From positions 24,102-88,101 of the forward strand of contig DIFI01000021.1 in NCBI GenBank assembly GCA_002419055.1: a DNA stretch of 64,000 bases. Reading direction: 5' to 3'. This document shows, piece after piece, positions 1,174-25,296 of the stretch (position 1 is its first letter; the number at the start of each line of letters is the position of its first letter). The translations under genes and the position numbers were made by a program. The notes beneath the pieces are model-generated. The model worked only from the letters and a program-made list of their open reading frames with translations, had not been told where the DNA came from and did not search any database. This DNA comes from Peptococcaceae bacterium UBA5752. Its GTDB lineage: Bacteria > Bacillota > Dehalobacteriia > UBA4068.

Positions 1174-1425
1174 GTGTCTAACTAAAGCACAGCGGTAATC
1201 TCTTGTATCATTGTTGTTACATAACAAAAATCCTTTTTATAGCTAATAATATATATTGTATCCGGCAAAGAATAATCTATAGTGTAAATAATTTTATAGA
1301 GGCCATTTACAATTATTTACAAGAATGGTATAATTAAACCGTTATATTTATTAATGTATAACGAATTGACGTGTGTCAATTTTCGCCATAACGGCTGATA
1401 AAAAATAGATATTGGGTGGGTGAAA

Positions 1426-3275: not shown

Positions 3276-3351
3276 TTTTTTTACCGTTGTATATTCTTTT
3301 GTGAGAATAGTTTTGTACGCAAATAATAAAAAATAGTTTTTAGGAAAGATA

Positions 3352-5274: not shown

Positions 5275-5275
5275 C

Positions 5276-5908: not shown

Positions 5909-6221
5909 TTTAAGAGGCGGCGGCTTGCGAAGCGGCCGTACGCAAAGTGATTTTAATCCTATGGATGGTTTGGCTAATTTGGCCGACTGTATGCTGGTTT
6001 TGGCCTGTGGCCTGCTGCTTTCGTTGATTGTCAGCTGGAATCTGGATATCGCGGTGGACGAAACCGTGGCAAGTCCCAACGAAAGCGCTGTTAGCGAGGT
6101 AGATGGCGTGGAGAATAGCGATCTAAATTCCATAGATGAGAACAGCGGTTATAAGGAAATGGGAAAGGTTTATAAAGACCCAAAGACCGGGCAGCTTTAT
6201 ATGGTAATAGATGATAAATGA
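5898..6221 (+). CDS. ExbD/TolR-like single-pass protein with short acidic C-terminal domain
   Basis: Overlaps the exbB-like stop (ATGCAAAAT at 5898, with GGGAGG upstream). FNPMDGLANLADCMLVLACGLLLSLIV resembles the ExbD N-terminus/TM. The periplasmic part is only ~55 aa and D/E-rich. Confidence 0.55.
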   Translation: MQNSLRGGGLRSGRTQSDFNPMDGLANLADCMLVLACGLLLSLIVSWNLDIAVDETVASPNESAVSEVDGVENSDLNSIDENSGYKEMGKVYKDPKTGQLYMVIDDK

Positions 6222-6240
6222 TAAAGGGGGAAGGGATATT

Positions 6241-8229
6241 ATGAAAAAGATCAAGGGTATATTACTGGTATTATTGACATTGTCGCTGGTGCTTTTTGTA
6301 GCTCTGCCGGCTATGGCAATTGACCCGGTGGAGCCCAGCGACACTCTGGAAGTCTGCCTTAAAACGGCGGACGGTACAGTAACGCTGCATACTTACACAT
6401 TGGCCGAGATGGAGGCCCTAGCAGACGGGGAGGATATCTGCTATTCCGGTATTGATGCCATGCCATGCACGGTAAAAACCGTGGCCAGCGGCGTTTATAT
6501 CGAGGATCTTTTGGATGATGTAGCGCAGTATACCACTATGGACGTATGGGATTTTTCTAAGCTGCGTTTCACATCTACCGATGGCGCGACAGGCATCTTT
6601 ACCGAAGACGATCTCTTCTGCGACCGCTATTATTTTGCTGCACTTCACGAAGAAAGCGGCGGGCTAAATGAAGATGGTTTAGTAGATTACGATTATGGAG
6701 AGGGCGAATTGGTTCAGCCAATGCTTTCCATCAGTGCCGAGCAGGGTCGCCGTCCGATGCCGTCAGAATTCCGCGATGATTATAACCCGGAGCGCTATAC
6801 CATTCTTTTTGGTATAACTGAGGATGAAGTAGAAAACGCTACCCAGCGCGTTTCTCAGTACAAGCGCGGCGTATATAAAATGGTTATTGATCTGGGCAAT
6901 GTATCCGCGCCTCAAGTGGCTGTAACGGGCATTGCTCTTGATAGAACCAGCGACAAGGTTTATACCGGCAAATCGATCCAGCTTACAGCTATCATTAGTC
7001 CGAGTGATGCGACTAATACGGGGGTTACCTGGAGCAGCAGTGATCAGTCGGTAGCGAAGGTATCTTCCACAGGGGTTGTCACAGGGGTTGCCACAGGAAC
7101 AGTTACTATCATCGCTACAGCTGCCGGAAATACCGCATTTAGTGCATCCTGTAACGTAACCGTATCCAACCGGAGCGTATCGGTTTCGGGCGTTTCTTTA
7201 AGCCAAAGCAGCCTGTCATTGGGAGTAGGCGGTAAAAAAGAGCTGACCGCCACCGTACTGCCCGGCAATGCCGACGAGCGCGACGTGACTTGGTTAAGCA
7301 GCAATGAAAAAGTTGCAACTGTCGATGACGGTATGATCACTGCCGTTGCCGTGGGTCAGGCTACTATAACCGTCGAGACCTCTGACGGCGGTTACACCGC
7401 TGTATGCACGGTTACCGTCACAAATGAGGCGATTGCCGTCACCGGAGTGACGCTGAACCGTACTGCCGTATCACTAGCCAAAGGCAGCAGCTTCCAGCTT
7501 GTTGCCAATTTCAGTCCGGAGGGCGCTTCCAATATGGCTGTTGTTTGGAGCAGCAGCGCACCGGGCGTTGTTGCAGTGGATACCAATGGCCTACTTACTG
7601 CAAAGAATATCGGAACCTCGACTATTACCGTTCTGACAAGTGAAGGCAGCTTTACCGCGCAATGTCTGGTAAAGGTTGCGGATTCGGTCGAAGCTTTCAG
7701 TGATATATCGGGTAATTGGGCGAAGACGTATATTGAAAGCATGGTGGATGCAGGATTTATTAGCGGCTATACTGACGGCAGCTTCCGTCCTATGGCTAAC
7801 ATTACCCGTGCTGAATTCATAAGCATACTCATCCGCATCCTTCAAAGCGCCAAGGGTGAAACATTGCAAACAGGGCATGTATTTAACGATACGTCAGCAC
7901 ATTGGGCTAAGGACTATATTTCCACCGCGGTAGCACTTTCGATTACTTCCGGCTACGGCAACGGTAATTTTGGCCCCAATGACCCAATCACCCGCGAGCA
8001 GATAGCAGTAATGCTGACCAAGGCTGCGGATTCAAGCGGCAGCACCACCGCCACCAGCTTCACCGATGTAGCTAAGATTTCCTCCTGGGCGGTTTCTTCT
8101 GTTGCTTATGCTGCGGAACAGGGATGGATCAGTGGCTACAGCAATGGCAGCTTTGGTCCGCAAAGACAAGCCACCAGAGCAGAAGTATGTGCGTTACTCT
8201 GGCGTTTTTATCAACAGATCAATGGTTAA
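6241..8229 (+). CDS. SLH-anchored surface protein: RYYYP-type domain, 4x Big_2, 3x SLH
   Basis: ATG 6241 after GGGGGAAGGG. Signal peptide ...ALPAMA. Four repeats of the type VTGIALDRTS...VTWSSSD...ATGTVTI. Three C-terminal SLH motifs (FSDISGNWAKTYIE.., FNDTSAHWAKDYI.., FTDVAKISSWAV..). Confidence 0.85.
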   Translation: MKKIKGILLVLLTLSLVLFVALPAMAIDPVEPSDTLEVCLKTADGTVTLHTYTLAEMEALADGEDICYSGIDAMPCTVKTVASGVYIEDLLDDVAQYTTMDVWDFSKLRFTSTDGATGIFTEDDLFCDRYYFAALHEESGGLNEDGLVDYDYGEGELVQPMLSISAEQGRRPMPSEFRDDYNPERYTILFGITEDEVENATQRVSQYKRGVYKMVIDLGNVSAPQVAVTGIALDRTSDKVYTGKSIQLTAIISPSDATNTGVTWSSSDQSVAKVSSTGVVTGVATGTVTIIATAAGNTAFSASCNVTVSNRSVSVSGVSLSQSSLSLGVGGKKELTATVLPGNADERDVTWLSSNEKVATVDDGMITAVAVGQATITVETSDGGYTAVCTVTVTNEAIAVTGVTLNRTAVSLAKGSSFQLVANFSPEGASNMAVVWSSSAPGVVAVDTNGLLTAKNIGTSTITVLTSEGSFTAQCLVKVADSVEAFSDISGNWAKTYIESMVDAGFISGYTDGSFRPMANITRAEFISILIRILQSAKGETLQTGHVFNDTSAHWAKDYISTAVALSITSGYGNGNFGPNDPITREQIAVMLTKAADSSGSTTATSFTDVAKISSWAVSSVAYAAEQGWISGYSNGSFGPQRQATRAEVCALLWRFYQQING

Positions 8230-8259
8230 CGGGTAAATGTTTACCGGAAAGGAGCAGAT

Positions 8260-9687
8260 ATGAAGAAGTTAAAAAAGACGGGCCTGTTTTTCTGCGTCTT
8301 GGTGGCAATTTTGATCCCTACTATGTCCTGGGCGGGAGCAACAAGTAGTCTCGATATTACCGGCCCCTGTTACGAGATGCTTTCACCCACCAACAGCGCT
8401 ACTGAGATGGCAGTTACCTGGTGGGATGCGCTGGAGGTAAACACAGCCTCTGTGCAATACAGCACCAGTTCGAACTTTAGCAGTGGTGTTTTCAGTGTTG
8501 CAGCTACCTTATCCAAAAACGATACCACTAACGGATATAGCGCTTTTGCGGCAACGATGACCAATCTTACCGCTGATACTACTTATTATTACCGCGTTGG
8601 TAATGTCACCGCTTGGAGCGATACCAATAGTTTTACAACCGGTGATGCAGCCTCGGCCAGCAGCCTTTCCATCATGTATCTGGGCGATGCCCAGTATGCA
8701 AGCTATAATGCCGCAGTAGAGGAGTATGCTACCTGGGGTAGTTTGATCAATGGCGCATATACAAAATTTCCCAATCTTGATTTTGCGTTAATGGGCGGTG
8801 ATTTAGTTAGTCTAGGTCAGTCGGCTGTCGATTGGCAGCGTTTCTACAATAATGCTAGTCCGGTATTTTCCAAATTGCCTGTATTAGCAGTGCCCGGCAA
8901 CCATGAAAGCAATGCAACTTCCGGCAAGCCGGAGCTGTTCCTGAAACTGTTCGATTTGCCGACCAACGGCCCCACAGGTTTTGAAGAGGAATTCTATTCC
9001 TATGATTACGGAAACTGTCATATCGTTTGTTTGAGCAGCAGCATATTCCTCGATGAGCAATTAGCAGCCGGCACTATGACCGAAGCTGACTTCGACACGA
9101 TTAAGCAGTGGATTGCCAGTGATTTGGCTGATTCCGATGCAACCTGGAAGATTGTGGTCATGCACCATCCTGCTTATGCGGTAGTCAGCGACGACACTGC
9201 TGTTGATGTATTGGCGAACTGGGCGCCGGTTTTTGTCAATGCACAGGTAGACTTGGTCTTATGTGGTCATCAGCATGTTTATATGCGTACCGAAGCGATT
9301 AAGGGCGTTACCTATGTGATGGGCGTATCCGGCAGCAAGTTTTATGCGCCGGCTACTGTGTCCTATTCTGAGTGTATGATCGGCTATACCAGCAATTATG
9401 AAATCATTAACGCTGATAGCAACAGTTTGACGGTAACGGCTTATGATTCTACTGGTACCAGTTTGGATACAGTGACGATTAAACCAAAAAATAGGACCAT
9501 CACGCCGACTTGGCCTGAGGATATTGTCGGTGACCTCAACGGCGACGGGTCTATTACCTCTGCCGATGTAACACTACTGATTAGCGCGATTTTAACCAAT
9601 GCTGCTTATTCCACTGTCATGGATGTAAATGATGATGGAAAAGTAAACATCTGTGACGCTCATCAGCTTAGCTTAAGCTTACTATAA
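8260..9687 (+). CDS. Purple-acid-phosphatase-like metallophosphoesterase with C-terminal dockerin
   Basis: AAGGAG RBS and a signal peptide. Fn3-like PAP N-domain (TTYYYRVGN). Metallophos motifs GDAQY, GGDLVS, GNHE, MHHPAY, CGHQH. C-terminal DLNGDGSITSADVTLL and DVNDDGKVNICDAHQL dockerin repeats. Confidence 0.85.
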   Translation: MKKLKKTGLFFCVLVAILIPTMSWAGATSSLDITGPCYEMLSPTNSATEMAVTWWDALEVNTASVQYSTSSNFSSGVFSVAATLSKNDTTNGYSAFAATMTNLTADTTYYYRVGNVTAWSDTNSFTTGDAASASSLSIMYLGDAQYASYNAAVEEYATWGSLINGAYTKFPNLDFALMGGDLVSLGQSAVDWQRFYNNASPVFSKLPVLAVPGNHESNATSGKPELFLKLFDLPTNGPTGFEEEFYSYDYGNCHIVCLSSSIFLDEQLAAGTMTEADFDTIKQWIASDLADSDATWKIVVMHHPAYAVVSDDTAVDVLANWAPVFVNAQVDLVLCGHQHVYMRTEAIKGVTYVMGVSGSKFYAPATVSYSECMIGYTSNYEIINADSNSLTVTAYDSTGTSLDTVTIKPKNRTITPTWPEDIVGDLNGDGSITSADVTLLISAILTNAAYSTVMDVNDDGKVNICDAHQLSLSLL

Positions 9688-9704: not shown

Positions 9705-11402
9705 ATGCGAGTGAGTGATAAACTAAAAATCTTCGTTTTACTGTCTGTAATCTTTTGTTTGATATTGCTGCCGACTGTATGCTTGGCCGCCGGCACCAAA
9801 GTGTCGGATGCCGTCAATAATATATTCGTCTATGCTGACGATGCCACCGGCGCTCAGGTTTTACTTAAAGTCATTCCATTATCTACCCTTAAGTCAATGT
9901 CACATGGTAGTGATGGTACAGCCAATACCGACTATTACGGTTCTTTTCTTGACGCCTATAAAACGCCGACTTACTTAGAAGGGCAGGGCGTTACCATACC
10001 TGAGCTGCTTACCTATGTCAAAAAGAACTCTTTGGTGGCAGATGTTGGTTCGCTGACTTATGCCGGATCGGATATACTATATTTTACTTGCTGCGACGGC
10101 GCTTCCGTTAATTTTACCTATGATGCGCTGTATGGTACTGAATTAAACCCGGTGAACCGCTATTATTATCCAGCCTTATATGATTACTGGGACAGTGAAA
10201 ACGTTGAAGTGCCGGATGCTGATGAGGCTACAGTTTTGGCAAGCGGCATTTCGGCACCGGTTTATCTTGCAACCGTATCCAAGGGCGGACGGGTATTTGC
10301 CAGCGCCGGCGGCACAAATATTTCCTCTTATGTTACAGCTAACGATGGCGTGGTCAGCGGTTGCCTGGCCGGTCAACTTACGGATGAAGATGCGCTGCGT
10401 TTAATCTTTCCGCAGACTGCCAGCGATATTCAAAGTAGTACCGATACATTAAGTTTTATCAAAAAATGGGTGTATAAGGTCCGGCTGAAAACAGCTGAGA
10501 CTTCACCGATTGCCTCGCTTGGTACGATCAGCAATCCCACATGTACCTATACCCTGGACGGCACCACACTCACTATCACCATGAGTTGTGAGGATGCAAA
10601 TGCTTCTCTCTATTATTCAACCATCGGTGGTTATACCGCCACGCCGGTAAACCTCTATACCGAGCCGATAACCGTGGAAAATTACGATACCAGCAAGCCA
10701 TTCACCATCAGCGTGATGGCGGTACGGGAAGGTTATGTGAACAGTACTGCTATATCCGCAAGCTCCGCCAATTATACCGATGGCGAGGGCGCGCCCAGTT
10801 TCACCTATGCTTTAACTTCATCCGATGCTACGCCCACGGTTGGCACCGCTTTTGATCTTTCGGTGACCCTTGCTGCCGATAAAGATTATACGCTTTACGG
10901 TGCCGAATACCGCGTTTCGGTACCGGCAGCTTATACAGTCAACAGCGTTACTCTCGGCACCGGCTGGCAATATGGTACAGCCACTTACGCTAATGAAGCG
11001 ACAATTGTCACATTTACCTATCTGAATACTACAGGGACTGCTGAAACCGCAACTACTGCCGTGCCGGTGGGGTCAATTAATTTGATTCCGGTTACGGCAG
11101 GTGATACTTCCGTTACGGTCAGTGAAGCGATTGTAACCAAAAGCGATGCTACCGCTTACACCAATATTACAGCCGCAGATTCAAGTTTCACGGTTGAGAG
11201 CAATATCACGCTCGGCGATGTGGATAGTGACAGTTATATCACTATGGGCGATGCCCTGCAAGTATGTAAGACTGTGGCTAAGGTAGTGACTCTAAACGAT
11301 GATCAGAAAAAAGCGGCTGATGTAGACAAAGACGGCTATATCACCATGAGCGACGCACTACTCATCTGCAAATATGTAGCCAAAGTTATCAGCGAATTTT
11401 AG
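9705..11402 (+). CDS. Secreted adaptor-like protein: RYYYP-type domain, Fn3/CHB_HEX_C-like, cohesin-like domain, C-terminal dockerin
   Basis: RBS GGAAGGGGGA and a signal peptide. NRYYYPALYD. Cohesin-like FDLSVTLAADKDYTLYGAEYRVSVPAAY...VTFTYLNTTGTAE. Dockerin-like DVDSDSYITMGDALQVCK and DVDKDGYITMSDALLICK. Confidence 0.8.
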   Translation: MRVSDKLKIFVLLSVIFCLILLPTVCLAAGTKVSDAVNNIFVYADDATGAQVLLKVIPLSTLKSMSHGSDGTANTDYYGSFLDAYKTPTYLEGQGVTIPELLTYVKKNSLVADVGSLTYAGSDILYFTCCDGASVNFTYDALYGTELNPVNRYYYPALYDYWDSENVEVPDADEATVLASGISAPVYLATVSKGGRVFASAGGTNISSYVTANDGVVSGCLAGQLTDEDALRLIFPQTASDIQSSTDTLSFIKKWVYKVRLKTAETSPIASLGTISNPTCTYTLDGTTLTITMSCEDANASLYYSTIGGYTATPVNLYTEPITVENYDTSKPFTISVMAVREGYVNSTAISASSANYTDGEGAPSFTYALTSSDATPTVGTAFDLSVTLAADKDYTLYGAEYRVSVPAAYTVNSVTLGTGWQYGTATYANEATIVTFTYLNTTGTAETATTAVPVGSINLIPVTAGDTSVTVSEAIVTKSDATAYTNITAADSSFTVESNITLGDVDSDSYITMGDALQVCKTVAKVVTLNDDQKKAADVDKDGYITMSDALLICKYVAKVISEF

Positions 11403-11463
11403 CTTAGTTGATTATACTCTGCCTTAATATAGATCAAAAAAAAAATTTAAGGAGTGATAGAAA

Positions 11464-14400
11464 GTGTTACAAAAGTTGAAGAAAAAGAACCTGACGGTGT
11501 TAGTAATCTTCATAATGGTTCTAGCCCTTTGCGTTGCTTTACCGATTCTGGCGACAGCGGAAGGCACTGCGACCGTTACAGTGGGCAGTACGACTACAGC
11601 AGCAGCTCCCGGAGATAGTATAACCATCCCCGTTGTCATTACCAGTAACCCCGGTATTACTGCATATGGATTTGCGATTTCGTATGATAGCTCAAATTTG
11701 ACATTGGATAGTATTTCGAAAACGGATAATGATTCGAATACGACCGATCTTTGCACTTCCGGTAGTTTTACCCCCAATACAGCATCTGCAGGCACTGGCT
11801 ATGTTAGCTGGCTGGATGGCGGTGCGGATATTACCGGCACCGGAAATTTGTTCTATTTAACTTTCACCGTCAAGAATACTGCGATGGGTGGCAATTATGC
11901 TGTTTCCTGCACTTTAACCGACGGTAGTGCTGCTAACTGCAAAAACTATGCCGGGTCAAATGTTGGCGTATCCTTCACTGACGGCATTATTGAGGTAGTA
12001 GCACCCGACACAACCGCTCCGACAATGACGAGCGTTGCTCCTGGCGAGGGCTTAGTAGCGCTGGGCGCTAGCGATAACCTCGTGCTTACCGTAACGGCAG
12101 ATGACGACGCGGCGCTTTCCGAGCTGGAGATCGACCACAGCATGGAGGGCACGCTGCCGGAATTCAGCGTCTACGCCGACATTGCGAACCCCTACGGCAC
12201 GGCAGATGATAAAGCTCAGTTTGAATCTGCCGGTGTTTCCGTAACCTACGCTGATGGCGTTTGGACGATTGATTTTGGCAGCACGATAACGAATACTATA
12301 GTGAATAACGGCGGCATCACCTTTTACATGGTGCTCAAGGATACGTCCGGCAACAGCTGGGGCAGCATGAGCCCGACTACTGCCGAGAATACCTATGCCT
12401 ATACCATAGCGCGGGACACAACCGCTCCGACTATGACAAGCGTTGAACCGGCTGAAGGCGCGGTGGAGCTGGACGCCAGCGAGGACTTTGTACTGACCGT
12501 GACGGCGCATGACGATATTGAGCTGTATGAGCTTGAGATCGACCACAGCATGTCAAGCACATTGCCGGAATTCAGCGTCTACGCCAACAGCGAAAACCCC
12601 TATGGCACAGCTGAGGATAAAGCTGAATTTGAAGCCGCCGGTGTTTCCGTGACCTACGGCGGCGGCGTCTGGACGATCGATTTTGGCGATACAGCAACGG
12701 ATGCTTTCGTGGCAAACGGCGGCATAACCTTATACATAGTAGTCAAGGATATGGCCGGCAACAGCTGGGGCAGCATGAGCCCGACTACTGTCGAGAATAC
12801 ATATGCATACACGATTACCCGCAAATACATTGCGGCGGCTAATTTCACTGACGGAGTCTATGCAATTACATCGGGCGGCGAATATAAGCTCGCTACTGAT
12901 GCGGCAGGGACGATTCAGATCAGCACCACCGATCCGGTGACTATTAGCGGCAATGGCACGACCGGCACCGCTAACAGTGGCCTTAGCATTGATAATACCG
13001 TAGCTGGTGCGGACCTGACCATAGAAGACCTCTATATCACCGGCGCAGTTACCGGTTCCGGTATGGTTGAATTTACCGGCAAAGACAATAAACTGTCGCT
13101 TTCCGGTGTCAGCACCCTTCAACGTATCGGAGGATCAGTTTGGGGCAATGCACTGATCCATGTGCCTGCGACTGCTGATCTGACCATTGACGGCGACGGT
13201 ACAGTCTATCTGGCCCAAGATGGCGACGGTGCTGCCATCGGCGGCAATCCTTCCGAGATCAACGGTAATATCACTATTAACGGAGGCGAAATCTTCTGCC
13301 GCAGTAATAAAACAGGCTCCAGCATCGGCGGCGGCCAGAGCGCTAACGGTGGTAATATTACCATCAACGGCGGTGAACTCAATATATTCCACAACGCGCG
13401 CGGCGCCATTTTGGGCGGCGGCGGCTATAGTGGCAGTTTAGTAGGCAACGGCGGTACTGTAACCATGACCGGCGGCAATGTCTCCCTGTTTGTAAATTTC
13501 ACAGGCGCGGCCATTGGCGGCGGCGGCGGGAGCAATTCTGCTCTGGAGCAGGACGGAGGAGACCTTTATATCACCGGCGGCTCGCTCAAAACCTATATCA
13601 ACAGCAATGCACTCAGTTTCTGGGGACTCACAACCGAAGGCGTCACGCCTGTTATCATCACCGCGGATAAATCAACCGGCGTGGGCGGAAATGCAGTCCA
13701 TCTGCTTACTATGGATGTGAGCGGTGTTACGGCCAATGACACCGGCGCCGCTTATGTGGCTTATCTGGATAATGAAACCACCGATCCCATTTATTCCGGT
13801 GGGTTGCACAGCTATGCTTATACCGGTACCAGCACCAACGCTATGACATATTGGCAGAAGTCTACCACGGATAACAACCTCTACCTCTATGTCACCGGTG
13901 AGAATCATACTGTCACCGTTAATGATCAAAAATTCAATGTCACTTGGGATTCCGGCACTTCCGGCTTCAGTGTTGCGGCGGCTCCTAAAATCTGGGATGG
14001 CACTGCGAATACAGGTTGGTATAATACCACTGATACGGAATTCCATCTCACCATGGGTAACCAACTGGCCGGACTTGCGCAGATCGTCAACGGTACGGCA
14101 ACCGGCATCACTCAAGACAGTTTCAGCGGCAAGACCGTCAATATTGATAACGATATCTATCTTAACGACGGTACAACCAGTAATAATTGGACGCCTATCG
14201 GTGATATTACACACCATTTTGACGGTGTGTTTAACGGCGGCGGCTACAATATATACGGTATGAAAATTATTGCAACAAAGGGCTATGCCGGTTTATTCGG
14301 CAACGTATCCGGTACAGTTAAGAACTTTAAACTTTACGGATCTGTTACTATTAATTCGGCGATTGACGGCGATATTGCAAAAGGTAGTAAAACTAATACC

Positions 14401-17400
14401 GATAACGACTTTGTCGGTGCGGCAGTTGGTAAACTCAATGCGGGCGGTACGATCAGTAACGTCATCAACTATGCTCCCATTGAAGCCAAGGAATGCATGA
14501 ACGTCGGCGGTATCGTCGGTTTTGTCGGCACGCCCGTCACGTATGGGACGAAATCAGACGCTTATGCCGAATATAACTCCAACCCCTCCGGCAGTAACAC
14601 CTATGTGCTCAACTGCGGCAATAACGCCACTGTACATGGTTTTTACAAGCTGGGCGGTATCGCCGGTGAAAGCGCGGGTATTGTTATGTACTGCTACAAT
14701 ACCGGCTACATCCTCCCGCACATGCACGGTTCCGGCGGCGGCTGGGGCGGCATTGTCGGACGCAACGGCAACAACAACACAGCGACCGAGGTCGGCACCA
14801 TTGCCTATTGCTGGAACAGCGGTACAGTTACCGACAACGGCATGAACGATGACCACAACGAGACGATCAAGTGGTATGGCGGTATCACTGCCTTTTGCAA
14901 CAGTAAGTCTTCTGTACACAACTGTTACAACATCGGCGCAATTCCTGCCGGACGCAACACTTTTTCGTCCATCATTGGTAACTGCGAAAGCACTATGGTT
15001 TACAACAACTGTTCGCTGATTTCCACCAGCATCAATAGCGACAGCACATATGAGAAAAACTTGGGCATACAGTTTGAGGAATCTGATTTCAAGAGCGCTG
15101 CCAATACGGATACCTCTATATTGACTGTGCTGGGCCCTGTTTTTGTCGCTGATACCGGAAATATTAACAACGGATATCCTGTCCTGCGCTGGCAGGCGGG
15201 CAGCAGCGCCGAACCGACGCTAACCTCTGTTTCGTTATTCTCGGTGCCGACAAAAATCGCTTATTATGAGCTGGAGACCTTTAATCCTGCAGGTATGAAG
15301 CTTAAAGCAACATACAGTGACGGAACTTATGCAATATTATCGGGCGGCTTCACTTATCCCACCGATCCGTTGTCTGACAGCACTAACAGCGTTACCGTTA
15401 GCTATGGCGGTTTTGATATTACTCAAGCCATCACGGTCTACAATCTCGATTCTATCGCTGTTACCACACAGCCTACCAAAACGGTTTACAATGCCACCGA
15501 TTTATTTAACAGATCCGGTATGGTAGTTACCGTTTACTACAGCGATAATACTTCGAAGGTGATTTATTCATATACTTATCCTACAACTCCTTTAACTGAT
15601 GACATGACCAGCGTTACTATCGGCTATGGCGACAAGACCACTACCCAGCCGATCACGGTCAATGCTTTAGGCTTGACCGTGATCGCGGTAACAACTGTGC
15701 CGACCAAGACTTTCTATCTCCCCGACGAATCATTTGATAATACCGGTATGGTAGTTAATGCAACATATAACAGTGCAGTGGTACAGCCTTTGGCTGCGGA
15801 AGACTACGTCGTCACTCCCGCCTCACTGACCATTGGTACAACTGCGGTCACCATCAGCTTTACCTATCTTGGCGTAACTCAGACCGCGTCTACTCCGGTG
15901 ACAGTGATATCTGCAACACCTGCCTTGGTTGACGGGTATTATCAGATAGTGAGCGCAGATGATCTTCGCTGGTTCGCCGATTATGTGAGCGTCCAGGGCA
16001 ATACAACTGCCTGCGCCAAGTTGGTCAATGATATTACCCTCACCTCTGATTGGACGCAGCCGATCGGTAACAGTACCAATAAGTTTGCCGGTACTTTTGA
16101 CGGTAACGGCAAGACGATCAGCGGCCTAGATAATGCTGCGGTGACCACACAGAATTTTGGTCTTATTGGCTATGGCTTAGGGGCTACTGTCAAAGACCTT
16201 ACAGTCGGCGGCGAAATCAGCACGACCGCCTCTAATACCGGTTTGGTTGCCGGTTGGGCCGACGGTTGCACTTTTACCAATATCACAGCCAACGGTTCGC
16301 TGACCAGAGCCAGCGGTACCCTAAACAATACTGCCGGTATCACAGGTTACGCCTGCAATGCCAGCGTATTAACTAACTGCGTGAACAATGCCGCTATTAC
16401 CTCCGGCGGTCAGTATACAGGCGGTATCGCCGGCAGCGCAGACGGCGCGACCAGCTTCTCCGGCTGTATCAATAACGGTGTGATCAATACTACCCATCGG
16501 TATATAGGTGGCATCGTCGGTTCGTTCGGCGGTACGGGCAACATCACATCCTGTATCAATAAAGGTGCAGTTACTGCCACCTATAACGTTGGTGGTATCG
16601 CCGGTAGATATAACTCAACCGGCAGCATGGAGAATTGCTATAACAGCGGTGCCATCGTCGCTACCTTATCATCAACATCTACTGCTTACGCTGCAGGCGG
16701 CGTGATCGGTTATTTCGGCGGCGCCGGTACTATAGACACCTGCTACAACAGCGGTGATGTCACCGGCGCTATCGGTAATGTCGGCGGTGTGGTCGGCTGT
16801 ATGTATGCGGCCAATAGCATACTGACCAACAGTTATAATACCGGCGACGTCTGTTACACCGGCAATGCCACTACTCCTTGCGTGGGCGGCGTTGTTGGCG
16901 CGACCAATGATGTTAGCTGCACGATCCAGAACTGTTACAACCGCGGCGCGGTAACCTTTGCTACAACCAAACCTTTGATCGGCTCCGTCGTCGGTACACC
17001 CAAGATCGGATATACCGCCATCAGCAATAACTATTATCTCAACACCACTTCTGCTGATGCGACATCTACAGCCAAAACTGCCGCTGAACTGAAGAATCTT
17101 GCTGCCACTTTGGGCGCAAGCTACAAGGCAGGCGGCATTTCACCTATCTTCACCTGGCAGCCGGATGAAGTATTTACCTCCGCAGCACCGGTAGTGAACG
17201 TAGATACTGTTACCGCCGATGTTCCGGATACGATCGTCATTGGCGCTAATGCCAATGTGGAAATCAACGCTTCGGCGGTGACTGTGGAAGATATCAACAC
17301 ATCAAATGTTTCAATTCCCGCAGCTTTGGTTGAGAATCTGGACAATGCCCAATCAGTCACCATTGTGACCAACATGGGTAATATCACATTTGACAACGCT

Positions 17401-19356
17401 GCTCTTGCTGATATTGTGGATAACGCTACCACGTCCCTGACCTTAGGCCTCGATCGAACCAGCGATGCGGACGGTGTTACGGTATATGAGCTGACGCTCA
17501 AAGACAGCGGCGGCAATAATGTCTTTACCGAAGGCTCCGCTACAGTCACATTGCCTTATACCCTGGCCGAAGCAAAAAGCCCTGATAGCGTCAAGGTTTT
17601 CTATGTGGCGAGCAACGGTACCAAGACAGAAGTGACCAATTGTACCTATGCCAACGGTTACGTCACTTTCACAGTTGAGCACTTCTCCACATACAGCATC
17701 GAGGCAGACAGCACCACAATCTCCGCAATTACCGCTGCCACTAATGCCAACGCCGGTGAAACCTTTACCGTCGATGTCAAGGTCAGCGGCGATGCAGCTC
17801 AGCAGTTTGCTTCCATGTCCGCCAATCTCAATTATGATAAGACCAAAGTAGCATTTGTAAGCTTTGCTGCGGGGGCCGGTACAACTGAAGCCAGCGCCTA
17901 TGATAATACAACTACCGCCAAGGTAAATATCCTCGAAAGCGGTGCGGATAAGACCATCGGCGCCGACGGCTTTGTGATCGGCACAATCACTTTCCGTGCC
18001 TTGACTGCCATCAGTACCGGCAATAGTGTTGCAGCTTTCTCTATCAGTGACGGTATGGTTGGTGATTCCGGTACACCGACTCCTGCGGTAAGCGCTTTGA
18101 GCGGTGCCAATATTTCCGTCAATTTGCATAATCTGGCGGTTATCTTCCAACAAGGCACGGGCAACACGCTGGCCGCTTCTACCGCATATGCCAAGTACAA
18201 TGCGGCGGGTCTCTTCGCCAGCAATGCCTATACCGATACTTTCACTATTCCTACTCCGGCAGCCTCTGATGGCTACCGCCTGGCGGATATCCTCTGGAAT
18301 AACGGTACCAACAATTACACTTCCGAACAGGTTGCGGCATTGGCTATAACCGCCAATGCGACCATGACTGCGCAATCAGTCAAAACCTACGCTGTAAGTT
18401 TCTATAATAGCGACGCCGCCCAGATAGGCAGCACCCAGAATATAGATACCGGCCTGACTGCCACTGCTCCGGCTGATCCTACTGCCCCGGCGGGCACTGC
18501 TTTTGTCGGTTGGTTTATAGCAGCCTCCAGCGACGCCACCTATGACGGCATTGCCACTCTCTACAGTAAAGCCCAGATTGACTTAGCTGCGGTGACTGCC
18601 GATACCATTTACAAAGCCTATTATTCAGATAATGAGTATGCGATCACCGTTCCTGTCGATGTGACCGTCGTCAGCGGCGTTACCGACAGTAAAGCCAAGC
18701 ACAACACTGACGTAGTCTTCACTGTCAGCACCACCACTGTGGATCAAGGTTATACCATCACTGTTTCCTATAAGGTAGGTACGGCTGATGCAGTAATCAT
18801 CACGAAGGATGCAGAGAACAAGTACACCATCCCCGGCTCTGCTATAACTGATGCGACAGTGATCACAGTCCAGAAAACGATCAACGGCACAATCAGCTAT
18901 ATCAACTATGACAATTACAAAGGCGCACCGGCCAATTATAAAGTGGCTCTGCTGACACTTAGCGACAGCGCTCCTGCGGATAGCAAATACCAGTATGACG
19001 GACAGGATATGTTTTTGGCTCAACCGGTCAATACTACTGCCGCATATGGTACCGGCGCCTACGTATTCTTCGTCGCCTCTGATGAGGATGCGGTGACTAC
19101 GTTATCCAAGATTGCGATTGTCAGCGGCACACAGCTGACTGTCGACTATGACGGAAACGTCAACGGTCTGAGTGAGGTAGAAATCAATGACGCGCAGTTG
19201 GTCTATGATTTGTATAATAATAACACCAATTATTCGTCCGACTTCAATCTCGCCACGATGCTGATGCGCTTTGAAGCCGATGTCAACGGCGACGGCACAA
19301 TCGGCGTCAACGACATCAGAATGATCTACAGCACTATCCGCGGTATCACTGAGTAA
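11464..19356 (+). CDS. Giant 2630-aa secreted multidomain protein: cohesin-like, 2x137-aa tandem repeats, Gly-rich beta-helix, 2 GLUG modules, Ig-like repeats, second cohesin-like, dockerin
   Basis: GTG start 9 nt after AAGGAG. Signal peptide. N-terminal cohesin-like GDSITIPVVITSNPGITAYGFAISYDSSNLTLDSI...NLFYLTFTVKNTA. Repeated GG[IV][AV]G...C[YI]N.GA[IV] GLUG periodicity. C-terminal DYDGNVNGLSEVEINDAQL / DVNGDGTIGVNDIRMI dockerin. A single uninterrupted ORF. Confidence 0.85.
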   Translation: MLQKLKKKNLTVLVIFIMVLALCVALPILATAEGTATVTVGSTTTAAAPGDSITIPVVITSNPGITAYGFAISYDSSNLTLDSISKTDNDSNTTDLCTSGSFTPNTASAGTGYVSWLDGGADITGTGNLFYLTFTVKNTAMGGNYAVSCTLTDGSAANCKNYAGSNVGVSFTDGIIEVVAPDTTAPTMTSVAPGEGLVALGASDNLVLTVTADDDAALSELEIDHSMEGTLPEFSVYADIANPYGTADDKAQFESAGVSVTYADGVWTIDFGSTITNTIVNNGGITFYMVLKDTSGNSWGSMSPTTAENTYAYTIARDTTAPTMTSVEPAEGAVELDASEDFVLTVTAHDDIELYELEIDHSMSSTLPEFSVYANSENPYGTAEDKAEFEAAGVSVTYGGGVWTIDFGDTATDAFVANGGITLYIVVKDMAGNSWGSMSPTTVENTYAYTITRKYIAAANFTDGVYAITSGGEYKLATDAAGTIQISTTDPVTISGNGTTGTANSGLSIDNTVAGADLTIEDLYITGAVTGSGMVEFTGKDNKLSLSGVSTLQRIGGSVWGNALIHVPATADLTIDGDGTVYLAQDGDGAAIGGNPSEINGNITINGGEIFCRSNKTGSSIGGGQSANGGNITINGGELNIFHNARGAILGGGGYSGSLVGNGGTVTMTGGNVSLFVNFTGAAIGGGGGSNSALEQDGGDLYITGGSLKTYINSNALSFWGLTTEGVTPVIITADKSTGVGGNAVHLLTMDVSGVTANDTGAAYVAYLDNETTDPIYSGGLHSYAYTGTSTNAMTYWQKSTTDNNLYLYVTGENHTVTVNDQKFNVTWDSGTSGFSVAAAPKIWDGTANTGWYNTTDTEFHLTMGNQLAGLAQIVNGTATGITQDSFSGKTVNIDNDIYLNDGTTSNNWTPIGDITHHFDGVFNGGGYNIYGMKIIATKGYAGLFGNVSGTVKNFKLYGSVTINSAIDGDIAKGSKTNTDNDFVGAAVGKLNAGGTISNVINYAPIEAKECMNVGGIVGFVGTPVTYGTKSDAYAEYNSNPSGSNTYVLNCGNNATVHGFYKLGGIAGESAGIVMYCYNTGYILPHMHGSGGGWGGIVGRNGNNNTATEVGTIAYCWNSGTVTDNGMNDDHNETIKWYGGITAFCNSKSSVHNCYNIGAIPAGRNTFSSIIGNCESTMVYNNCSLISTSINSDSTYEKNLGIQFEESDFKSAANTDTSILTVLGPVFVADTGNINNGYPVLRWQAGSSAEPTLTSVSLFSVPTKIAYYELETFNPAGMKLKATYSDGTYAILSGGFTYPTDPLSDSTNSVTVSYGGFDITQAITVYNLDSIAVTTQPTKTVYNATDLFNRSGMVVTVYYSDNTSKVIYSYTYPTTPLTDDMTSVTIGYGDKTTTQPITVNALGLTVIAVTTVPTKTFYLPDESFDNTGMVVNATYNSAVVQPLAAEDYVVTPASLTIGTTAVTISFTYLGVTQTASTPVTVISATPALVDGYYQIVSADDLRWFADYVSVQGNTTACAKLVNDITLTSDWTQPIGNSTNKFAGTFDGNGKTISGLDNAAVTTQNFGLIGYGLGATVKDLTVGGEISTTASNTGLVAGWADGCTFTNITANGSLTRASGTLNNTAGITGYACNASVLTNCVNNAAITSGGQYTGGIAGSADGATSFSGCINNGVINTTHRYIGGIVGSFGGTGNITSCINKGAVTATYNVGGIAGRYNSTGSMENCYNSGAIVATLSSTSTAYAAGGVIGYFGGAGTIDTCYNSGDVTGAIGNVGGVVGCMYAANSILTNSYNTGDVCYTGNATTPCVGGVVGATNDVSCTIQNCYNRGAVTFATTKPLIGSVVGTPKIGYTAISNNYYLNTTSADATSTAKTAAELKNLAATLGASYKAGGISPIFTWQPDEVFTSAAPVVNVDTVTADVPDTIVIGANANVEINASAVTVEDINTSNVSIPAALVENLDNAQSVTIVTNMGNITFDNAALADIVDNATTSLTLGLDRTSDADGVTVYELTLKDSGGNNVFTEGSATVTLPYTLAEAKSPDSVKVFYVASNGTKTEVTNCTYANGYVTFTVEHFSTYSIEADSTTISAITAATNANAGETFTVDVKVSGDAAQQFASMSANLNYDKTKVAFVSFAAGAGTTEASAYDNTTTAKVNILESGADKTIGADGFVIGTITFRALTAISTGNSVAAFSISDGMVGDSGTPTPAVSALSGANISVNLHNLAVIFQQGTGNTLAASTAYAKYNAAGLFASNAYTDTFTIPTPAASDGYRLADILWNNGTNNYTSEQVAALAITANATMTAQSVKTYAVSFYNSDAAQIGSTQNIDTGLTATAPADPTAPAGTAFVGWFIAASSDATYDGIATLYSKAQIDLAAVTADTIYKAYYSDNEYAITVPVDVTVVSGVTDSKAKHNTDVVFTVSTTTVDQGYTITVSYKVGTADAVIITKDAENKYTIPGSAITDATVITVQKTINGTISYINYDNYKGAPANYKVALLTLSDSAPADSKYQYDGQDMFLAQPVNTTAAYGTGAYVFFVASDEDAVTTLSKIAIVSGTQLTVDYDGNVNGLSEVEINDAQLVYDLYNNNTNYSSDFNLATMLMRFEADVNGDGTIGVNDIRMIYSTIRGITE
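12004..12825 (+). repeat. Two tandem ~411-nt (137-aa) near-identical coding repeats inside the giant gene
   Basis: PDTTAPTMTSVAPGEG...NTYAYTIA and RDTTAPTMTSVEPAEG...NTYAYTIT. High amino-acid identity; the nt-level similarity is visible by eye. Confidence 0.7.
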
Positions 19357-19384: not shown

Positions 19385-20722
19385 ATGAAACGATTTACAA
19401 TTACTATTATCGTTTGCATATTGATCTTTGCTTTGAGTATCTCCACCGCTTTGGCTGTTGATAACAGCAGAACATATTCTTTTCAACTCACCTCCAATGG
19501 CAGCAGTACTGCTGCCATTGGAGTGGGGGATATGATTACGGTGAAGTTTACTCTGGCGGCAGACAACAGCTATGCTTTGTATGCGATGCAGAATGAGATT
19601 AAGTATGACAGCCGCTATTTGCAATATGTTGATGGAAGCCTTAGTATGACCTCCGGTTTTAATTCCGGCTTTCGGGATATGGAGGATGGCATCAATAAAC
19701 TGGTGCTGATGAATTATGTTTCCGATACAGCAGAGGGAGAAACCATAAACTCCAGTGTCGTGGTGGGAACCTTCCAGTTGAAGGCCATCGCTAATGGAAC
19801 TTCGACTGTCAGCAACGAGGATTATTATTGCACAACCAAAACCGGTGCAAATAATTACACTGCTACCGCCAGTGATCTTATTGTCAACATTAAATCTTCC
19901 GGCGGCGGTGGCGGCGGTAGTAGTGTCACTTATTACACCATCAACGCCAGCGCCGGCGAGGGTGGCAGCATATCGCCTTCCGGCAGCGTCAGCGTAGCTC
20001 AGGACGGTTCACAAACTTTCACTATAAACCCCAACTATAGATATATTATAGAAGACGTACAGGTAGATGGCAAAAGCGTCGGCGACGTCAGCACATATGC
20101 CTTCTCCGCTGTCACTGCCAACCACACCATAAAAGCAACGTTCATTGCGGGAGAAGAGGAGCCAAACCTCACCGATCAATTCACCGACCTTGTCCCCGGC
20201 GCCTGGTATATAAACGGCATCAATTATGTTTTGCAGGCTGGACTGTTTAACGGTACCTCGGCAACCAGATTTAGTCCTGATGCCAATATGACGAGATCTA
20301 TGCTGGTAACGGTATTGTGGCGTTTAGACGGCACGCCTGACGCAACAGTAGACACCATCTTTAATGATGTGGCAGACGGTCTCTGGTACAGCGACGCTAT
20401 CGAATGGGCTGCGGCCAATAATATCGTCAACGGCTATGGCAACGGTAGGTTCGGTACCAATGACAGCATCACGCGCGAACAGATGGCGGTAATCTTATAT
20501 AACTATGCCAAAATTAAAGGTTACGATGTCAGCCAAACCACTTCACTCAGCAAATACACCGACACCGGCGATATTTCCGATTGGGCCAGCACAGCTATGG
20601 CCTGGGCCAATGCTACCGGCCTTGTCAACGGACGCACCGCTACAACTCTCGCTCCCGGCGGTACTGCCACAAGAGCTGAAGTTGCTACGATCTTAATGCG
20701 CTTTATCGAATATTACGTTTAA
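19385..20722 (+). CDS. Anchoring scaffoldin-like protein: cohesin-like domain + InlB-B-repeat-like middle domain + 3x SLH
   Basis: AGGAG RBS and a signal peptide. Cohesin-like MITVKFTLAADNSYALYAMQNEIKYDSRYLQYVDGS. Gly8 linker. Three SLH motifs (FTDLVPGAWYING.., FNDVADGLWYSDA.., YTDTGDISDWAST..). Confidence 0.85.
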   Translation: MKRFTITIIVCILIFALSISTALAVDNSRTYSFQLTSNGSSTAAIGVGDMITVKFTLAADNSYALYAMQNEIKYDSRYLQYVDGSLSMTSGFNSGFRDMEDGINKLVLMNYVSDTAEGETINSSVVVGTFQLKAIANGTSTVSNEDYYCTTKTGANNYTATASDLIVNIKSSGGGGGGSSVTYYTINASAGEGGSISPSGSVSVAQDGSQTFTINPNYRYIIEDVQVDGKSVGDVSTYAFSAVTANHTIKATFIAGEEEPNLTDQFTDLVPGAWYINGINYVLQAGLFNGTSATRFSPDANMTRSMLVTVLWRLDGTPDATVDTIFNDVADGLWYSDAIEWAAANNIVNGYGNGRFGTNDSITREQMAVILYNYAKIKGYDVSQTTSLSKYTDTGDISDWASTAMAWANATGLVNGRTATTLAPGGTATRAEVATILMRFIEYYV

Positions 20723-20874
20723 GTAACCAGTAAATTGACATTTAGCATAAAATTATAAGACCTTCCAATATATTGCAGTGCCCCCTAAGAAGACACAGGA
20801 AAAAGCGTGCAAAATCTACTTAGGGGGTATTATTATGGGTGAACATAGGAATTATGGTTTGGAAATTTAAACAA

Positions 20875-20907
20875 AAGGCCTGATATCTTTAAAATATCAG
20901 GCCTTTT
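20875..20907 (+). terminator. Rho-independent terminator (AGGCCTGATAT...ATATCAGGCCT TTTTT)
   Basis: Perfect 11-bp inverted repeat plus a T-run, downstream of 19385..20722. Confidence 0.55.
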
Positions 20908-21011: not shown

Positions 21012-21515
21012 TTAGCGCCGGCGAATGATTCCACAAGCAATTTTAGGGCCTGATTTACCCGCGGGCTGTGTTGTAAAATCGTCGGGAGATCTGTGTAGCA
21101 CTACGGTTCGTCCGATTACTTCGGCAACGGTAAAGCGGTTGGTTAATACCGACATTAGTGCAAACCCGTTATTTCCAAACAGTGGAGGAAGATCGCCGGC
21201 ATGGTGAGGATGGTCGCAGTTGCCGGGATTATAGTGCATGCCGGTATTGGCAAACGGATCCTCGGCGTTTCCTGTACAGGCCGTTCCCTCATGGATATGG
21301 AAACCGAAAACATTGCTGTTGCATGGACCCGGCTCATTCGGTAGTCCGGTGACTCTGGCTGCCAGTATTACGCCTTTTTTTGTTTGATATAAATACACAA
21401 TTCCGTTTATATCTGGAAAATCGCTGCTGCCAGACAATTTCGCCATTGCTTCAGGCGACTTTTTAAGCAGTGTCCCCATATCGATAATTCGTGGCAATGA
21501 AATCATTTTTACCAC
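21012..21515 (-). CDS. Cu/Zn superoxide dismutase family protein (SodC/YojM-like)
   Basis: Motifs GFHIHE..C..., HYNP, HPHHAGDLP, ACGII. No obvious signal peptide. Confidence 0.75.
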   Translation of the reverse strand: MVKMISLPRIIDMGTLLKKSPEAMAKLSGSSDFPDINGIVYLYQTKKGVILAARVTGLPNEPGPCNSNVFGFHIHEGTACTGNAEDPFANTGMHYNPGNCDHPHHAGDLPPLFGNNGFALMSVLTNRFTVAEVIGRTVVLHRSPDDFTTQPAGKSGPKIACGIIRRR

Positions 21516-23913: not shown

Positions 23914-25296
23914 TTGAAAATTTGCTTTCAAAAACTAATTGTTATAATGATAATTACATCATTGGTAATTGCGTGCGGCAGTGCAGTATTAGCAGCCGAT
24001 ATCACTGTTACCATCAGCGGCGACGGTGTTACTACGCAACAAAGCTTTACCGGTGAGCAATTGGCGGCAATGACTGATCAAATACAGCAGCATTATTATT
24101 CCTCAATTAATAACTGGCCCACCAATAAAAATGTTTATGCGAAAGGCATCTCGCTTTCATATTTGTTGCAGCTGTCGGGTATCAAGGATGAGGCTACCTT
24201 GATTAAGATCACCAGCACCGACGGATATTACAAAACTTTTACCGTCTCCGAGTTGCTAGATTCCGAGCGTTACAGCTACAGTGACGGTAGAGCTACAGAA
24301 GTGCCGGTAATTTTAGGCTTGCAAAGCAGCGATAGTTCTTTCGCATCTATGACGGACGATCAGGCCCCGGTATTGGTAATAGGACAGCGCGCGGCAACAG
24401 AACAAACATTTCCTTGGTTTATTAAAAACGTTAGTACTATAGAAGTCAGCGCTGATACGTTAGCGCGGTGGCCGCAAGCAACATATGAGATTAACGATGC
24501 TGCAAACGGTTATCAGCTGGAGCTGAATCATAGCAATTTTGATACGGTTAAGCTCTATTATACAACTGACAGCACTACCCCGTCTGTTGAGAGTAATATG
24601 TATAATATCAGCACTACCTATTGGCAACCGGATCTGATCGTGCCGCTGCAGCTTACCGCCGGTACGGTTGTCAAAGTTATCGCCATCGGCCCCGGCAAGC
24701 CGGACAGTGAAGTTGTGACCATCAACTTGCCGACAACATCTGCCGGAACAGACCTGTCGTTTAGCGATGTGGCAAAAAACAGCTGGTATTATGATGCAGT
24801 TGATTATGTTAGTAACAAGGGATTATTCCAAGGCACATCGATAACAACATTTTCGCCCATGGCTCCAATGACACGCGCCATGTTTGTAACGGTACTTTAT
24901 CGGCTTTCCGGTGAGATATATTCGTCTACTACGGCCAAATTTAGCGATGTAGAATCCGGCAGTTGGTATGCCGATGCCGTTACCTGGGCTTCCGAAAAGG
25001 GAATAGTCAACGGTTACGGTAATGGTACATTCAGACCGTTAAATGCGGTGACCAGGGAGCAGATGGCTTTGATAATGTTCAATTATCTTAAATGCATTGG
25101 CGAAGGACCGCAGGGAGCTTGGATGATCAACCTAAATTACCCGGACAAATCTGCTATCAGTGATTGGGCTTTTGAAGCGGTAACGTATTGTACAATGAGA
25201 GGTTTGCTCAGCGGACGCAGTAACGGCAATTTTGATCCGCAGGGAACGGCCAACAGAGCGGAAGTGGCGACAGTGATGATGCGCTTTGACAAATAA
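23914..25296 (+). CDS. SLH-anchored (3x SLH) surface protein with N-terminal RYYYP-type domain
   Basis: TTG start (ATG 23947 is an alternative). Signal-like N-terminus. HYYSSINNWP...GISLSYLLQLSGI...ITSTDGYY...ERYSYS. Three SLH motifs at the C-terminus. Confidence 0.75.
   Translation: MKICFQKLIVIMIITSLVIACGSAVLAADITVTISGDGVTTQQSFTGEQLAAMTDQIQQHYYSSINNWPTNKNVYAKGISLSYLLQLSGIKDEATLIKITSTDGYYKTFTVSELLDSERYSYSDGRATEVPVILGLQSSDSSFASMTDDQAPVLVIGQRAATEQTFPWFIKNVSTIEVSADTLARWPQATYEINDAANGYQLELNHSNFDTVKLYYTTDSTTPSVESNMYNISTTYWQPDLIVPLQLTAGTVVKVIAIGPGKPDSEVVTINLPTTSAGTDLSFSDVAKNSWYYDAVDYVSNKGLFQGTSITTFSPMAPMTRAMFVTVLYRLSGEIYSSTTAKFSDVESGSWYADAVTWASEKGIVNGYGNGTFRPLNAVTREQMALIMFNYLKCIGEGPQGAWMINLNYPDKSAISDWAFEAVTYCTMRGLLSGRSNGNFDPQGTANRAEVATVMMRFDK

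Follow-up and report, generated by a model that had tools for sequence, protein, structure and literature searches.

How would a protein of 2630 amino acids (aa), with two cohesins and a dockerin in the same chain, be held at the cell surface, and what would it carry there? This question is raised by a gene of a 64,000-nucleotide stretch of DNA (hereafter the window) from Peptococcaceae bacterium UBA5752 (assembly GCA_002419055.1, contig DIFI01000021.1, positions 24,102 to 88,101 of the forward strand). It is as the basis of the cellulosome that cohesin-dockerin assembly is best understood. A preliminary description of the window, made from the sequence alone, had proposed that the product of this gene, which we call the giant protein, is a scaffold and in turn docks onto a further cohesin, because it has both kinds of module. 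We find that the gene context gives independent support to this proposal: the next gene encodes a protein with a cohesin and SLH repeats, the two preceding genes encode dockerin proteins, the gene order is conserved, and in some relatives the dockerin is exchanged for SLH repeats. On balance, we hold it to be rather probable that the giant protein is a wall-anchored adaptor scaffoldin with an adhesin-like stalk, whose cohesins would carry cargo and whose beta-helices and Ig-like domains would make a non-catalytic spacer.

Two cohesins and a divergent dockerin in one chain

The giant protein is encoded by an uninterrupted open reading frame (ORF) on the plus strand (11464..19356), which starts with GTG and has no frame breaks. 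It is present and intact as first described, and its N-terminus has the features expected of the signal peptide proposed at the time: a Lys-rich start, one hydrophobic stretch (aa 12-26, the only one of at least 14 residues in the protein) and a final ATA/EG. We looked across the chain for an LPxTG-like motif or a second hydrophobic stretch and found neither, so that the features of a sortase anchor are missing. When the whole protein was used as the query, Pfam returned Cohesin alone, and neither NCBIfam nor a phmmer search of the PDB returned any match. A segment-wise Pfam scan was thus needed, and it gave two Cohesin, three Big_3 and six Glug matches above the thresholds. In the same way, internal repeats were found with segment queries against a masked subject, since a full-length self-BLAST showed only the identity alignment.

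Both cohesin-like domains of the preliminary description are recognized by Pfam as Cohesin (Table 1). The profile of the family of cohesin 1 matches type I cohesins (4ums_A, E 2e-11; also 4uyp_A and 1aoh). Cohesin 2 belongs to a more divergent class, with an hhalign probability of only 82% against cohesin 1, and its AlphaFold2 (AF2) model is a clear cohesin fold (Foldseek probability 1.0; 5nrm_A at E 6e-8; 2vo8 with a TM-score of 0.82). The first lies at the N-terminal tip of the protein and the second about 400 residues before the C-terminus, leaving around 1900 residues between them.

The dockerin that had been placed at the C-terminus is seen in family profiles but not with Pfam. All five full-length relatives share conserved residues over the final 70 positions, and when we searched the PDB with a profile of five orthologous C-termini, dockerins ranked first and each covered both repeats. 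The matches include 5m2o_B, a group I dockerin of Ruminococcus flavefaciens (E 9e-5), and 4uyp_B, the ScaB dockerin of Acetivibrio cellulolyticus (E 2e-4); calmodulins rank after the dockerins and match the second loop only. The profile also aligns with six bona fide dockerins of neighbouring genes (hhalign 95.4%, E 2e-8). By these profile comparisons, the C-terminus of the giant protein is a divergent dockerin. It is not a type I dockerin in the sense of PF00404, as it scores below the threshold and only one of its two calcium loops is canonical, namely the second (DVNGDGTIGVND). Its identity to the dockerins of the upstream genes is only 26-27%, which places it in a different class. The giant protein thus has two cohesins and its own dockerin, of a class distinct from that of the upstream dockerins and below the Pfam cut-off.

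Two further regions, X1 and X2, separate cohesin 2 from the dockerin. The first has probable repeats of the Listeria-Bacteroides type, and its equivalent in the orthologues matches PF09479 or PF18998. The second has AF2 predicted local distance difference test (pLDDT) values of 76-91 for aa 2385-2475.

An anchor gene and the exchange of a dockerin for SLH repeats

A scaffold of this type requires a partner, and the gene that follows encodes a protein that combines a cohesin with three SLH repeats, from here on the anchor. The gaps flanking the giant gene are short, 61 nucleotides upstream and 28 nucleotides downstream. The anchor cohesin differs in class from both cohesins of the giant protein and is more divergent than cohesin 2. 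In other words, the dockerin of the giant protein is unlike the dockerins of the upstream genes and the cohesin of the anchor is unlike those of the giant protein, which mirrors the separate specificities of cellulosomes for anchoring and for cargo.

We then compared the window with related loci (labelled L001, L002 and so on). The gene order is kept in at least seven of them (L001-L007), which belong to different genera, even though the giant proteins are only 35-45% identical. These loci come from metagenome-assembled genomes (MAGs) of Peptococcaceae, including UBA4068, from the complete genome of Candidatus Formimonas warabiya DCMF, and from a Sporobacter and a Clostridiales MAG. In two of them, Ca. 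Formimonas warabiya (L007) and the Clostridiales MAG (L005), the giant protein lacks X2 and the dockerin; its C-terminus consists instead of three SLH repeats (Pfam E 2e-29 and 4e-35, respectively) preceded by a Gly/Ser/Glu-rich linker. There, the giant gene is followed by Oxidored_molyb or cobalt-transport genes, and the separate cohesin-SLH anchor gene is absent. Region X2 is accordingly restricted to the relatives that have the dockerin. A dockerin with a cohesin-SLH protein, on the one hand, and fused SLH repeats, on the other, are interchangeable solutions in this family. Such an exchange is expected if the dockerin of the giant protein binds the cohesin of the anchor, and would thus imply that the giant protein is attached to the wall.

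To see how far the two modules go together, we ran one hidden Markov model (HMM) per module class over all loci. The window, L001, L002/L004, L006 and the distant L010 have both the giant-type dockerin and the anchor-type cohesin, and L005 and L007 have neither. From the gene context and these profiles, it is likely that the dockerin of the giant protein binds the anchor cohesin. In L010, from an Oscillospiraceae MAG (3..8603), these modules are arranged differently: the first ORF has a giant-type dockerin at its end, the one directly after it has an anchor-type cohesin, and the third, a giant ORF, begins with a cohesin of the cohesin 2 type. A second, weaker example of exchange concerns a distant relative of the 565-aa protein encoded just upstream of the giant gene, which has SLH repeats in place of the dockerin.

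The same data bear on the idea that the giant protein is a self-assembling polymer, in which the dockerin of one molecule binds cohesin 1 or 2 of another to form fibres or a sheath. The presence of cohesins and dockerin in one chain is what such a polymer needs. Yet the lost dockerin is replaced by SLH wall-binding repeats, with the anchor gene vanishing along with it, and the class of the dockerin differs from that of the dockerins adjoining the type-I-like cohesins. We therefore regard polymerization as very improbable.

Candidate cargo of the two cohesins

The two genes upstream of the giant gene encode proteins that end in a type I dockerin: a purple-acid-phosphatase-like metallophosphoesterase and the 565-aa protein. 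They are always adjacent in the conserved loci, and the number of two cohesins for two cargo dockerins is kept even where the giant protein has fused SLH repeats. Judging from module classes and gene order, the chances are slightly better than even that cohesins 1 and 2 hold these two proteins. Unexpectedly, the 565-aa protein also contains, right in front of its dockerin, a cohesin-like module that Pfam misses and that is homologous to the anchor cohesin (hmmsearch E 2e-6; hhalign 97.2%, E 3e-11). This brings the tally of the operon to four cohesin-like modules and three dockerins.

One might instead suppose that the giant protein is only an anchored adhesin, tethered by its dockerin to the SLH anchor, with cohesins that bind dockerins encoded elsewhere or act as Ig-like spacers. 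This is rather unlikely, since the family conserves the two cohesins whereas other regions of the protein vary, the two dockerin genes are always adjacent in the loci compared, and the two-to-two count persists in the SLH-fused orthologues. In Peptococcaceae UBA4068 (L002 7058..8227, the same as L004 9998..11173) the giant gene is preceded by two genes for SLH anchors, one with an anchor-type cohesin and the other with a cohesin 54% identical to cohesin 1. The latter suggests, by its resemblance, that cohesin 1 is a working docking site; such an SLH protein would let one cargo dock on the wall directly.

The middle of the giant protein

If the giant protein is an adaptor scaffoldin, its long middle requires an explanation. 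The region opens with the two tandem 137-aa repeats noted in the preliminary description, and aa 182-317 are indeed 74% identical to aa 318-453. They share the motifs ELEIDHS, LPEFSVYA, WTIDFG and GN.WGSM. The module is missing from the orthologues of the giant protein and occurs in 32 other, unrelated giant surface proteins with 45-72% identity. Among these hosts are cadherin-like/VCBS, NosD-type and dockerin proteins. The module is without relatives in Pfam, and in the PDB when searched with a profile of 21 sequences, and looks like a recently shuffled, unnamed surface module.

The next module, of about 375 aa, covers the Gly/Asn-rich region that had been read as a right-handed beta-helix. 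The predicted structures are consistent with this reading, as the fold matches of the AF2 models are right-handed beta-helices, among them a match to the Cthe_2159 family that stems from one or the other of the two modelled modules. Sequence comparison, on the other hand, does not reveal any known family: this predicted beta-solenoid matches nothing in Pfam, its profile matches nothing in the PDB at E 1 or E 10, and 14 members of the family gave no significant Pfam match to Cthe_2159 or to any other beta-helix family. It is the best-conserved part of the giant protein across its family, with 83% identity to the relative P0002 and 41-46% to the others. Cluster representatives number 978 at E<=1e-3, of which 151 reach E<=1e-30, and nearly every match spans the full ~375 residues as a single unit. 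The module co-occurs with SLH repeats, type I dockerins, choline-binding repeats, or cohesin and GLUG, and some proteins consist of little else. This beta-solenoid is a discrete, autonomous domain and a candidate for a new domain family.

Modules A and B, on either side of the three Ig-like repeats, are paralogues (E 1e-10) and correspond to what had been called IgA1-protease-like modules followed by GLUG repeats. Their profile, built from seven genomes, matches 3n6z_A, the 'putative IgA1 protease' BACOVA_03286 (E 1e-15), and the pneumococcal IgA1 protease (6xja/7jgj; E 2e-4) at residues ~225-385 of the chain. As the construct starts at residue 665, the matched stretch lies inside the N-terminal beta-helix (781-1070). 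This beta-helix is a non-catalytic gate, and catalysis depends on H1604, E1605 and H1608 (PMC7695701). The GLUG part of the earlier claim stands for module B and for 13 of the 15 members of the module A/B family, but Glug fails for the window's own module A, on which a small HMM made from the six GLUG repeats of module B gives only weak per-repeat scores. There is also no HExxH motif anywhere in the giant protein and no Pfam match to Peptidase_M26. Hence, the giant protein has the GLUG beta-helix of the N-terminal domain of M26 proteases but not their HExxH catalytic domain, and "IgA1-protease-like" is, from sequence, right for the fold and wrong if read as a protease. The three Ig-like repeats between the modules pass Pfam as Big_3 (PF07523) in three stretches, with 32.8 bits for a cut-off of 21.2, in line with the preliminary description. 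Module B is followed by a conserved linker domain that is mostly beta (AF2 pLDDT ~75-85), has no Pfam match and was not part of that description.

These results are relevant for whether the giant protein could be a surface-displayed enzyme, with the beta-solenoid or the GLUG modules (or both) acting as polysaccharide lyase, hydrolase or protease and the cohesins and dockerin merely displaying them. Such an activity would be compatible with a role as scaffold. However, there is no sequence match to an enzyme family in Pfam or the PDB, even at E 10, and only Gly, Asn, Cys, Ile, Phe, Tyr, Pro, Trp and Ala are invariant across 15 sequences of modules A and B. This set contains no acidic or basic residue and no His, which, together with the missing HExxH and the gate function of the IgA1 protease beta-helix, leads us to read A and B as non-catalytic. 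Cthe_2159 itself has been described as binding cellulose and polygalacturonate (10.1101/401869). Catalysis by the giant protein is quite unlikely on these grounds, and its beta-helices would rather bind ligands.

Proposed arrangement and points that weigh against it

Taken together, we propose that the giant protein is exported and that its C-terminal dockerin would bind the divergent cohesin of the downstream protein, whose three SLH repeats attach it to the cell wall without a covalent bond. The two cohesins, which differ in class, would recruit the metallophosphoesterase and the 565-aa protein. The ~1900 residues of the middle (two 137-aa modules, the ~375-aa beta-solenoid, two GLUG beta-helices, three Big_3 and the linker domain) would form a rigid, non-catalytic region for binding and spacing, projecting the complex off the wall. 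Within this proposal, we are least sure of what the beta-helix modules do.

Several observations weigh against this arrangement. Concerning the dockerin, Pfam Dockerin_1 gives the C-terminus only 9.9 bits (E 1.2) for a cut-off of 22.9, the first calcium loop (DGNVNGLSEVEIND) is atypical, being two residues longer than the canonical one, and AF2 predicts three helices with pLDDT values of 34-54 and no confident dockerin. The cohesin of the anchor passes the Pfam cut-off only barely (26.8 bits for 24.1) and has no significant sequence relative in the PDB. Furthermore, because the anchor cohesin has a homologue in the 565-aa protein, namely its cohesin-like module, the dockerin of the giant protein could bind there too, or instead. 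The cargo dockerins might have partners elsewhere in the genome, beyond the window. The co-occurrence of giant-type dockerin and anchor-type cohesin was observed across seven loci that are phylogenetically non-independent. Finally, the beta-solenoid has invariant Glu, His, Ser and Asn residues and shares its fold with polysaccharide lyases, which makes catalysis conceivable.

Integrity of the gene

As the sequence comes from a metagenome contig, one could suspect that the 7.9-kb ORF is a chimera or the product of collapsed repeats, which the preliminary description had named as a possible source of an artificial ORF. The copy number of the 137-aa repeat, moreover, has no cross-check in the orthologues, which lack the repeat. 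Yet the longest internal repeat is only 76-78% identical at the DNA level and there are no other long ones, the frame is unbroken, and the module order recurs in independent assemblies, including one complete genome. An assembly artefact is thus extremely improbable. An identical protein (P0001) is recorded on a 161.6-kb contig of the Joint Genome Institute (metagenome 3300002219, SCADCLC_10011851), which the name of the record alone ties to SCADC, a methanogenic short-chain-alkane-degrading culture (PMC4161757).

Organization of the operon

The features of the giant gene and its neighbours are listed in Table 1. The first genes of the operon always encode Oxidored_molyb-type secreted proteins, a MotA/ExbB channel and a small membrane protein in the DUF2149 position (1420..6221 in the window; also L001-L009, L013 and L014), a set of genes that is odd for a presumably single-membrane Firmicute. 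MotA/ExbB genes are also found near giants with beta-solenoid and GLUG modules in Eubacterium oxidoreducens and in an Eggerthellaceae MAG. At the 3' side of the operon, L001 and L005 have ECF/cobalt-type transporter genes.

The ~240 N-terminal residues of the 565-aa protein are homologous to the N-terminus of the protein with Big_2 and SLH (hhalign 97%), and the family of the 565-aa protein has only 17 members. The hypothesis that this N-terminus is Oxidored_molyb-like found no support, as hhalign gave 1.2% against the protein of gene 1420..2496.

A palindromic hairpin separates the anchor gene from the convergent gene for Cu/Zn superoxide dismutase (21012..21515, minus strand). This hairpin is probably a bidirectional terminator and would mark the end of the operon. 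Just past it, beside rimP-nusA-infB, lies a gene for a further SLH protein, with Fn3_assoc/CHB_HEX_C (23914..25296). The remaining genes of the window are involved in housekeeping and C1 metabolism.

In a bolder interpretation, the giant protein would be the centrepiece of a surface organelle, a wall device for capture or adhesion built by cohesins and dockerins, with its beta-helix heads, the phosphatase and the proteins of unassigned function coupled to the MotA/ExbB proton channel, the DUF2149 protein and the Oxidored_molyb proteins at the start of the operon. We regard this as a speculative and improbable extension. If true, the complex would be an energised machine for capturing nutrients or partners in a single-membrane bacterium, not a passive scaffold. 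It would also be an undescribed organelle conserved among Peptococcaceae-like anaerobes, some of which ferment dichloromethane or belong to methanogenic alkane-degrading consortia.

Table 1. Features of the giant gene and its operon (positions in the window)
Feature	Position	Strand	Basis
MotA/ExbB-family channel protein	5276..5908	+	Pfam MotA_ExbB, E 3e-11
Small membrane protein in DUF2149 position	5898..6221	+	DUF2149 called at the equivalent position in L001 and L002
N-terminal domain without named family, 3x Big_2, 3x SLH	6211..8229	+	Pfam; syntenic in seven loci
Purple-acid-phosphatase-like metallophosphoesterase with type I dockerin	8260..9687	+	Pur_ac_phosph_N E 2e-16; Metallophos E 2e-16; Dockerin_1 E 2e-10
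565-aa protein: N-terminal domain, cohesin-like module (aa ~366-500), type I dockerin	9705..11402	+	Dockerin_1 E 1e-10
Shine-Dalgarno AAGGAG	11449..11454	+	9 nucleotides 5' of GTG; read directly from the sequence
Signal-peptide-like N-terminus, aa 1-32	11464..11559	+	Lys-rich start, hydrophobic core aa 12-26, ATA/EG; by inspection, not predictor software
Cohesin 1, aa 34-180	11563..12003	+	Pfam Cohesin E 1e-11 at aa 37-148; resembles type I
Two tandem 137-aa modules, aa 181-317 and 318-454	12004..12825	+	74% aa identity, ~78% DNA
Predicted beta-solenoid module of ~375 aa, aa 455-838	12826..13977	+	AF2 pLDDT 80-90 for aa 455-655
Module A, aa 839-1250, beta-helix of the IgA1-protease N-terminal-domain type, degenerate GLUG	13978..15213	+	
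Three Big_3 Ig-like repeats, aa 1251-1488	15214..15927	+	Pfam Big_3 E 9e-8, within aa 1245-1490
Module B, aa 1488-1905, GLUG beta-helix	15925..17178	+	Pfam Glug E 3e-13 to 9e-13, six stretches
Conserved linker domain, aa 1906-2086, unnamed	17179..17721	+	In all relatives
Cohesin 2, aa 2087-2225, divergent class	17722..18138	+	Pfam Cohesin E 2e-11 at aa 2089-2203
X1, aa 2226-2400, probable Listeria-Bacteroides (Flg_new) type repeats	18139..18663	+	Pfam Flg_new E 3e-3, sub-threshold
X2, aa 2401-2560, beta-rich, directly before the dockerin	18664..19143	+	Conserved only in dockerin-bearing relatives
Divergent dockerin, aa 2561-2630, and stop codon	19144..19356	+	Profile and hhalign; Pfam below cut-off
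Anchor: signal peptide, divergent cohesin, ~70-aa beta domain, 3x SLH	19385..20722	+	SLH E 3e-33; Cohesin E 6e-6
Palindromic hairpin, perfect 16-bp stem	20873..20907	.	Consensus terminator scan, pattern match only; flanked by A and T runs

Comparison with known systems

The closest parallels of the giant protein are cellulosome scaffoldins, such as ScaB with ScaC in A. cellulolyticus or CipA with SdbA/OlpB in Clostridium thermocellum, which also combine cohesins and a C-terminal dockerin in one secreted chain. The dockerin of ScaB binds the SLH-anchored ScaC, and the cluster of the giant gene likewise encodes an anchor with cohesin and SLH repeats. In cellulosomes, cargo and anchor are served by separate cohesin-dockerin classes, and the same would hold here. 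The best PDB matches of the giant dockerin include the ScaB dockerin (4uyp_B), and those of cohesin 1 include ScaC (4uyp_A). The differences are also clear. A recognised type II X-module is missing, and the giant protein has only two cohesins, set ~1900 residues of beta-helix and Ig-like domains apart. We found no carbohydrate-binding module (CBM) or glycoside hydrolase in the giant protein, in the operon, or in the 40 ORFs of the window scanned against Pfam. In particular, no dockerin-bearing glycoside hydrolase is present, the predicted cargo being a phosphatase-like protein and the 565-aa protein of unassigned family. The lineage of the host includes dichloromethane fermenters (PMC8163858), not cellulolytic bacteria. 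Hence, the complex most likely works like the adaptor and anchoring tier of a cellulosome, without being a cellulosome in the strict sense or having a role in cellulose breakdown.

The principle is not new, as cohesin-dockerin systems outside cellulosomes are already known. The glycosidase/toxin complexes of Clostridium perfringens, the amylosome of Ruminococcus bromii and the cohesins of Archaeoglobus fulgidus share with the giant protein a non-cellulolytic use of these modules, and structures from such systems are found among our fold and sequence matches (2vo8, 2jh2 and 2xdh; 9qf9_A). Those systems assemble glycoside hydrolases or amylases. For comparison, the scaffold described here has GLUG and beta-solenoid modules, and its operon adds MotA/ExbB and Oxidored_molyb-type proteins. 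Relative to the Gram-positive M26 IgA1 metalloproteases and BACOVA_03286 (3n6z), the giant protein lacks the M26 catalytic middle and C-terminal domains, HExxH, G5 and LPxTG. With Cthe_2159 of C. thermocellum (PF14262), a beta-helix protein that binds carbohydrates, its family has no sequence match, either to PF14262 or to 4phb.

The family of the giant protein is small and unnamed, and the only name given in the source records is that of a cargo, 'dockerin type I domain-containing protein'. We found no literature linking cohesins or dockerins with the biology of Peptococcaceae, and the terms S-layer, cohesin and dockerin are absent from the Formimonas papers that we consulted, including supplements of the proteomics study. 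What is specific here is a small, unnamed family whose scaffold is mostly built of GLUG and beta-solenoid modules, together with a phosphatase-like cargo and a conserved link to MotA/ExbB and Oxidored_molyb genes.

A compact and conserved operon appears to reuse the logic of anchor, adaptor and cargo in bacteria that show no sign of fibre degradation. The exchange of the dockerin for SLH repeats yields a clean prediction of one specific cohesin-dockerin pair, and the wiring of the whole system is tractable, as it involves no more than three dockerins and four cohesin-like modules. Both the 375-aa beta-solenoid and the 137-aa repeat emerge from the analysis as widespread surface modules for which no family model exists. 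Should the complex serve to attach cells to substrates or to syntrophic partners, it would be relevant to the surface organization of these slow-growing anaerobes.

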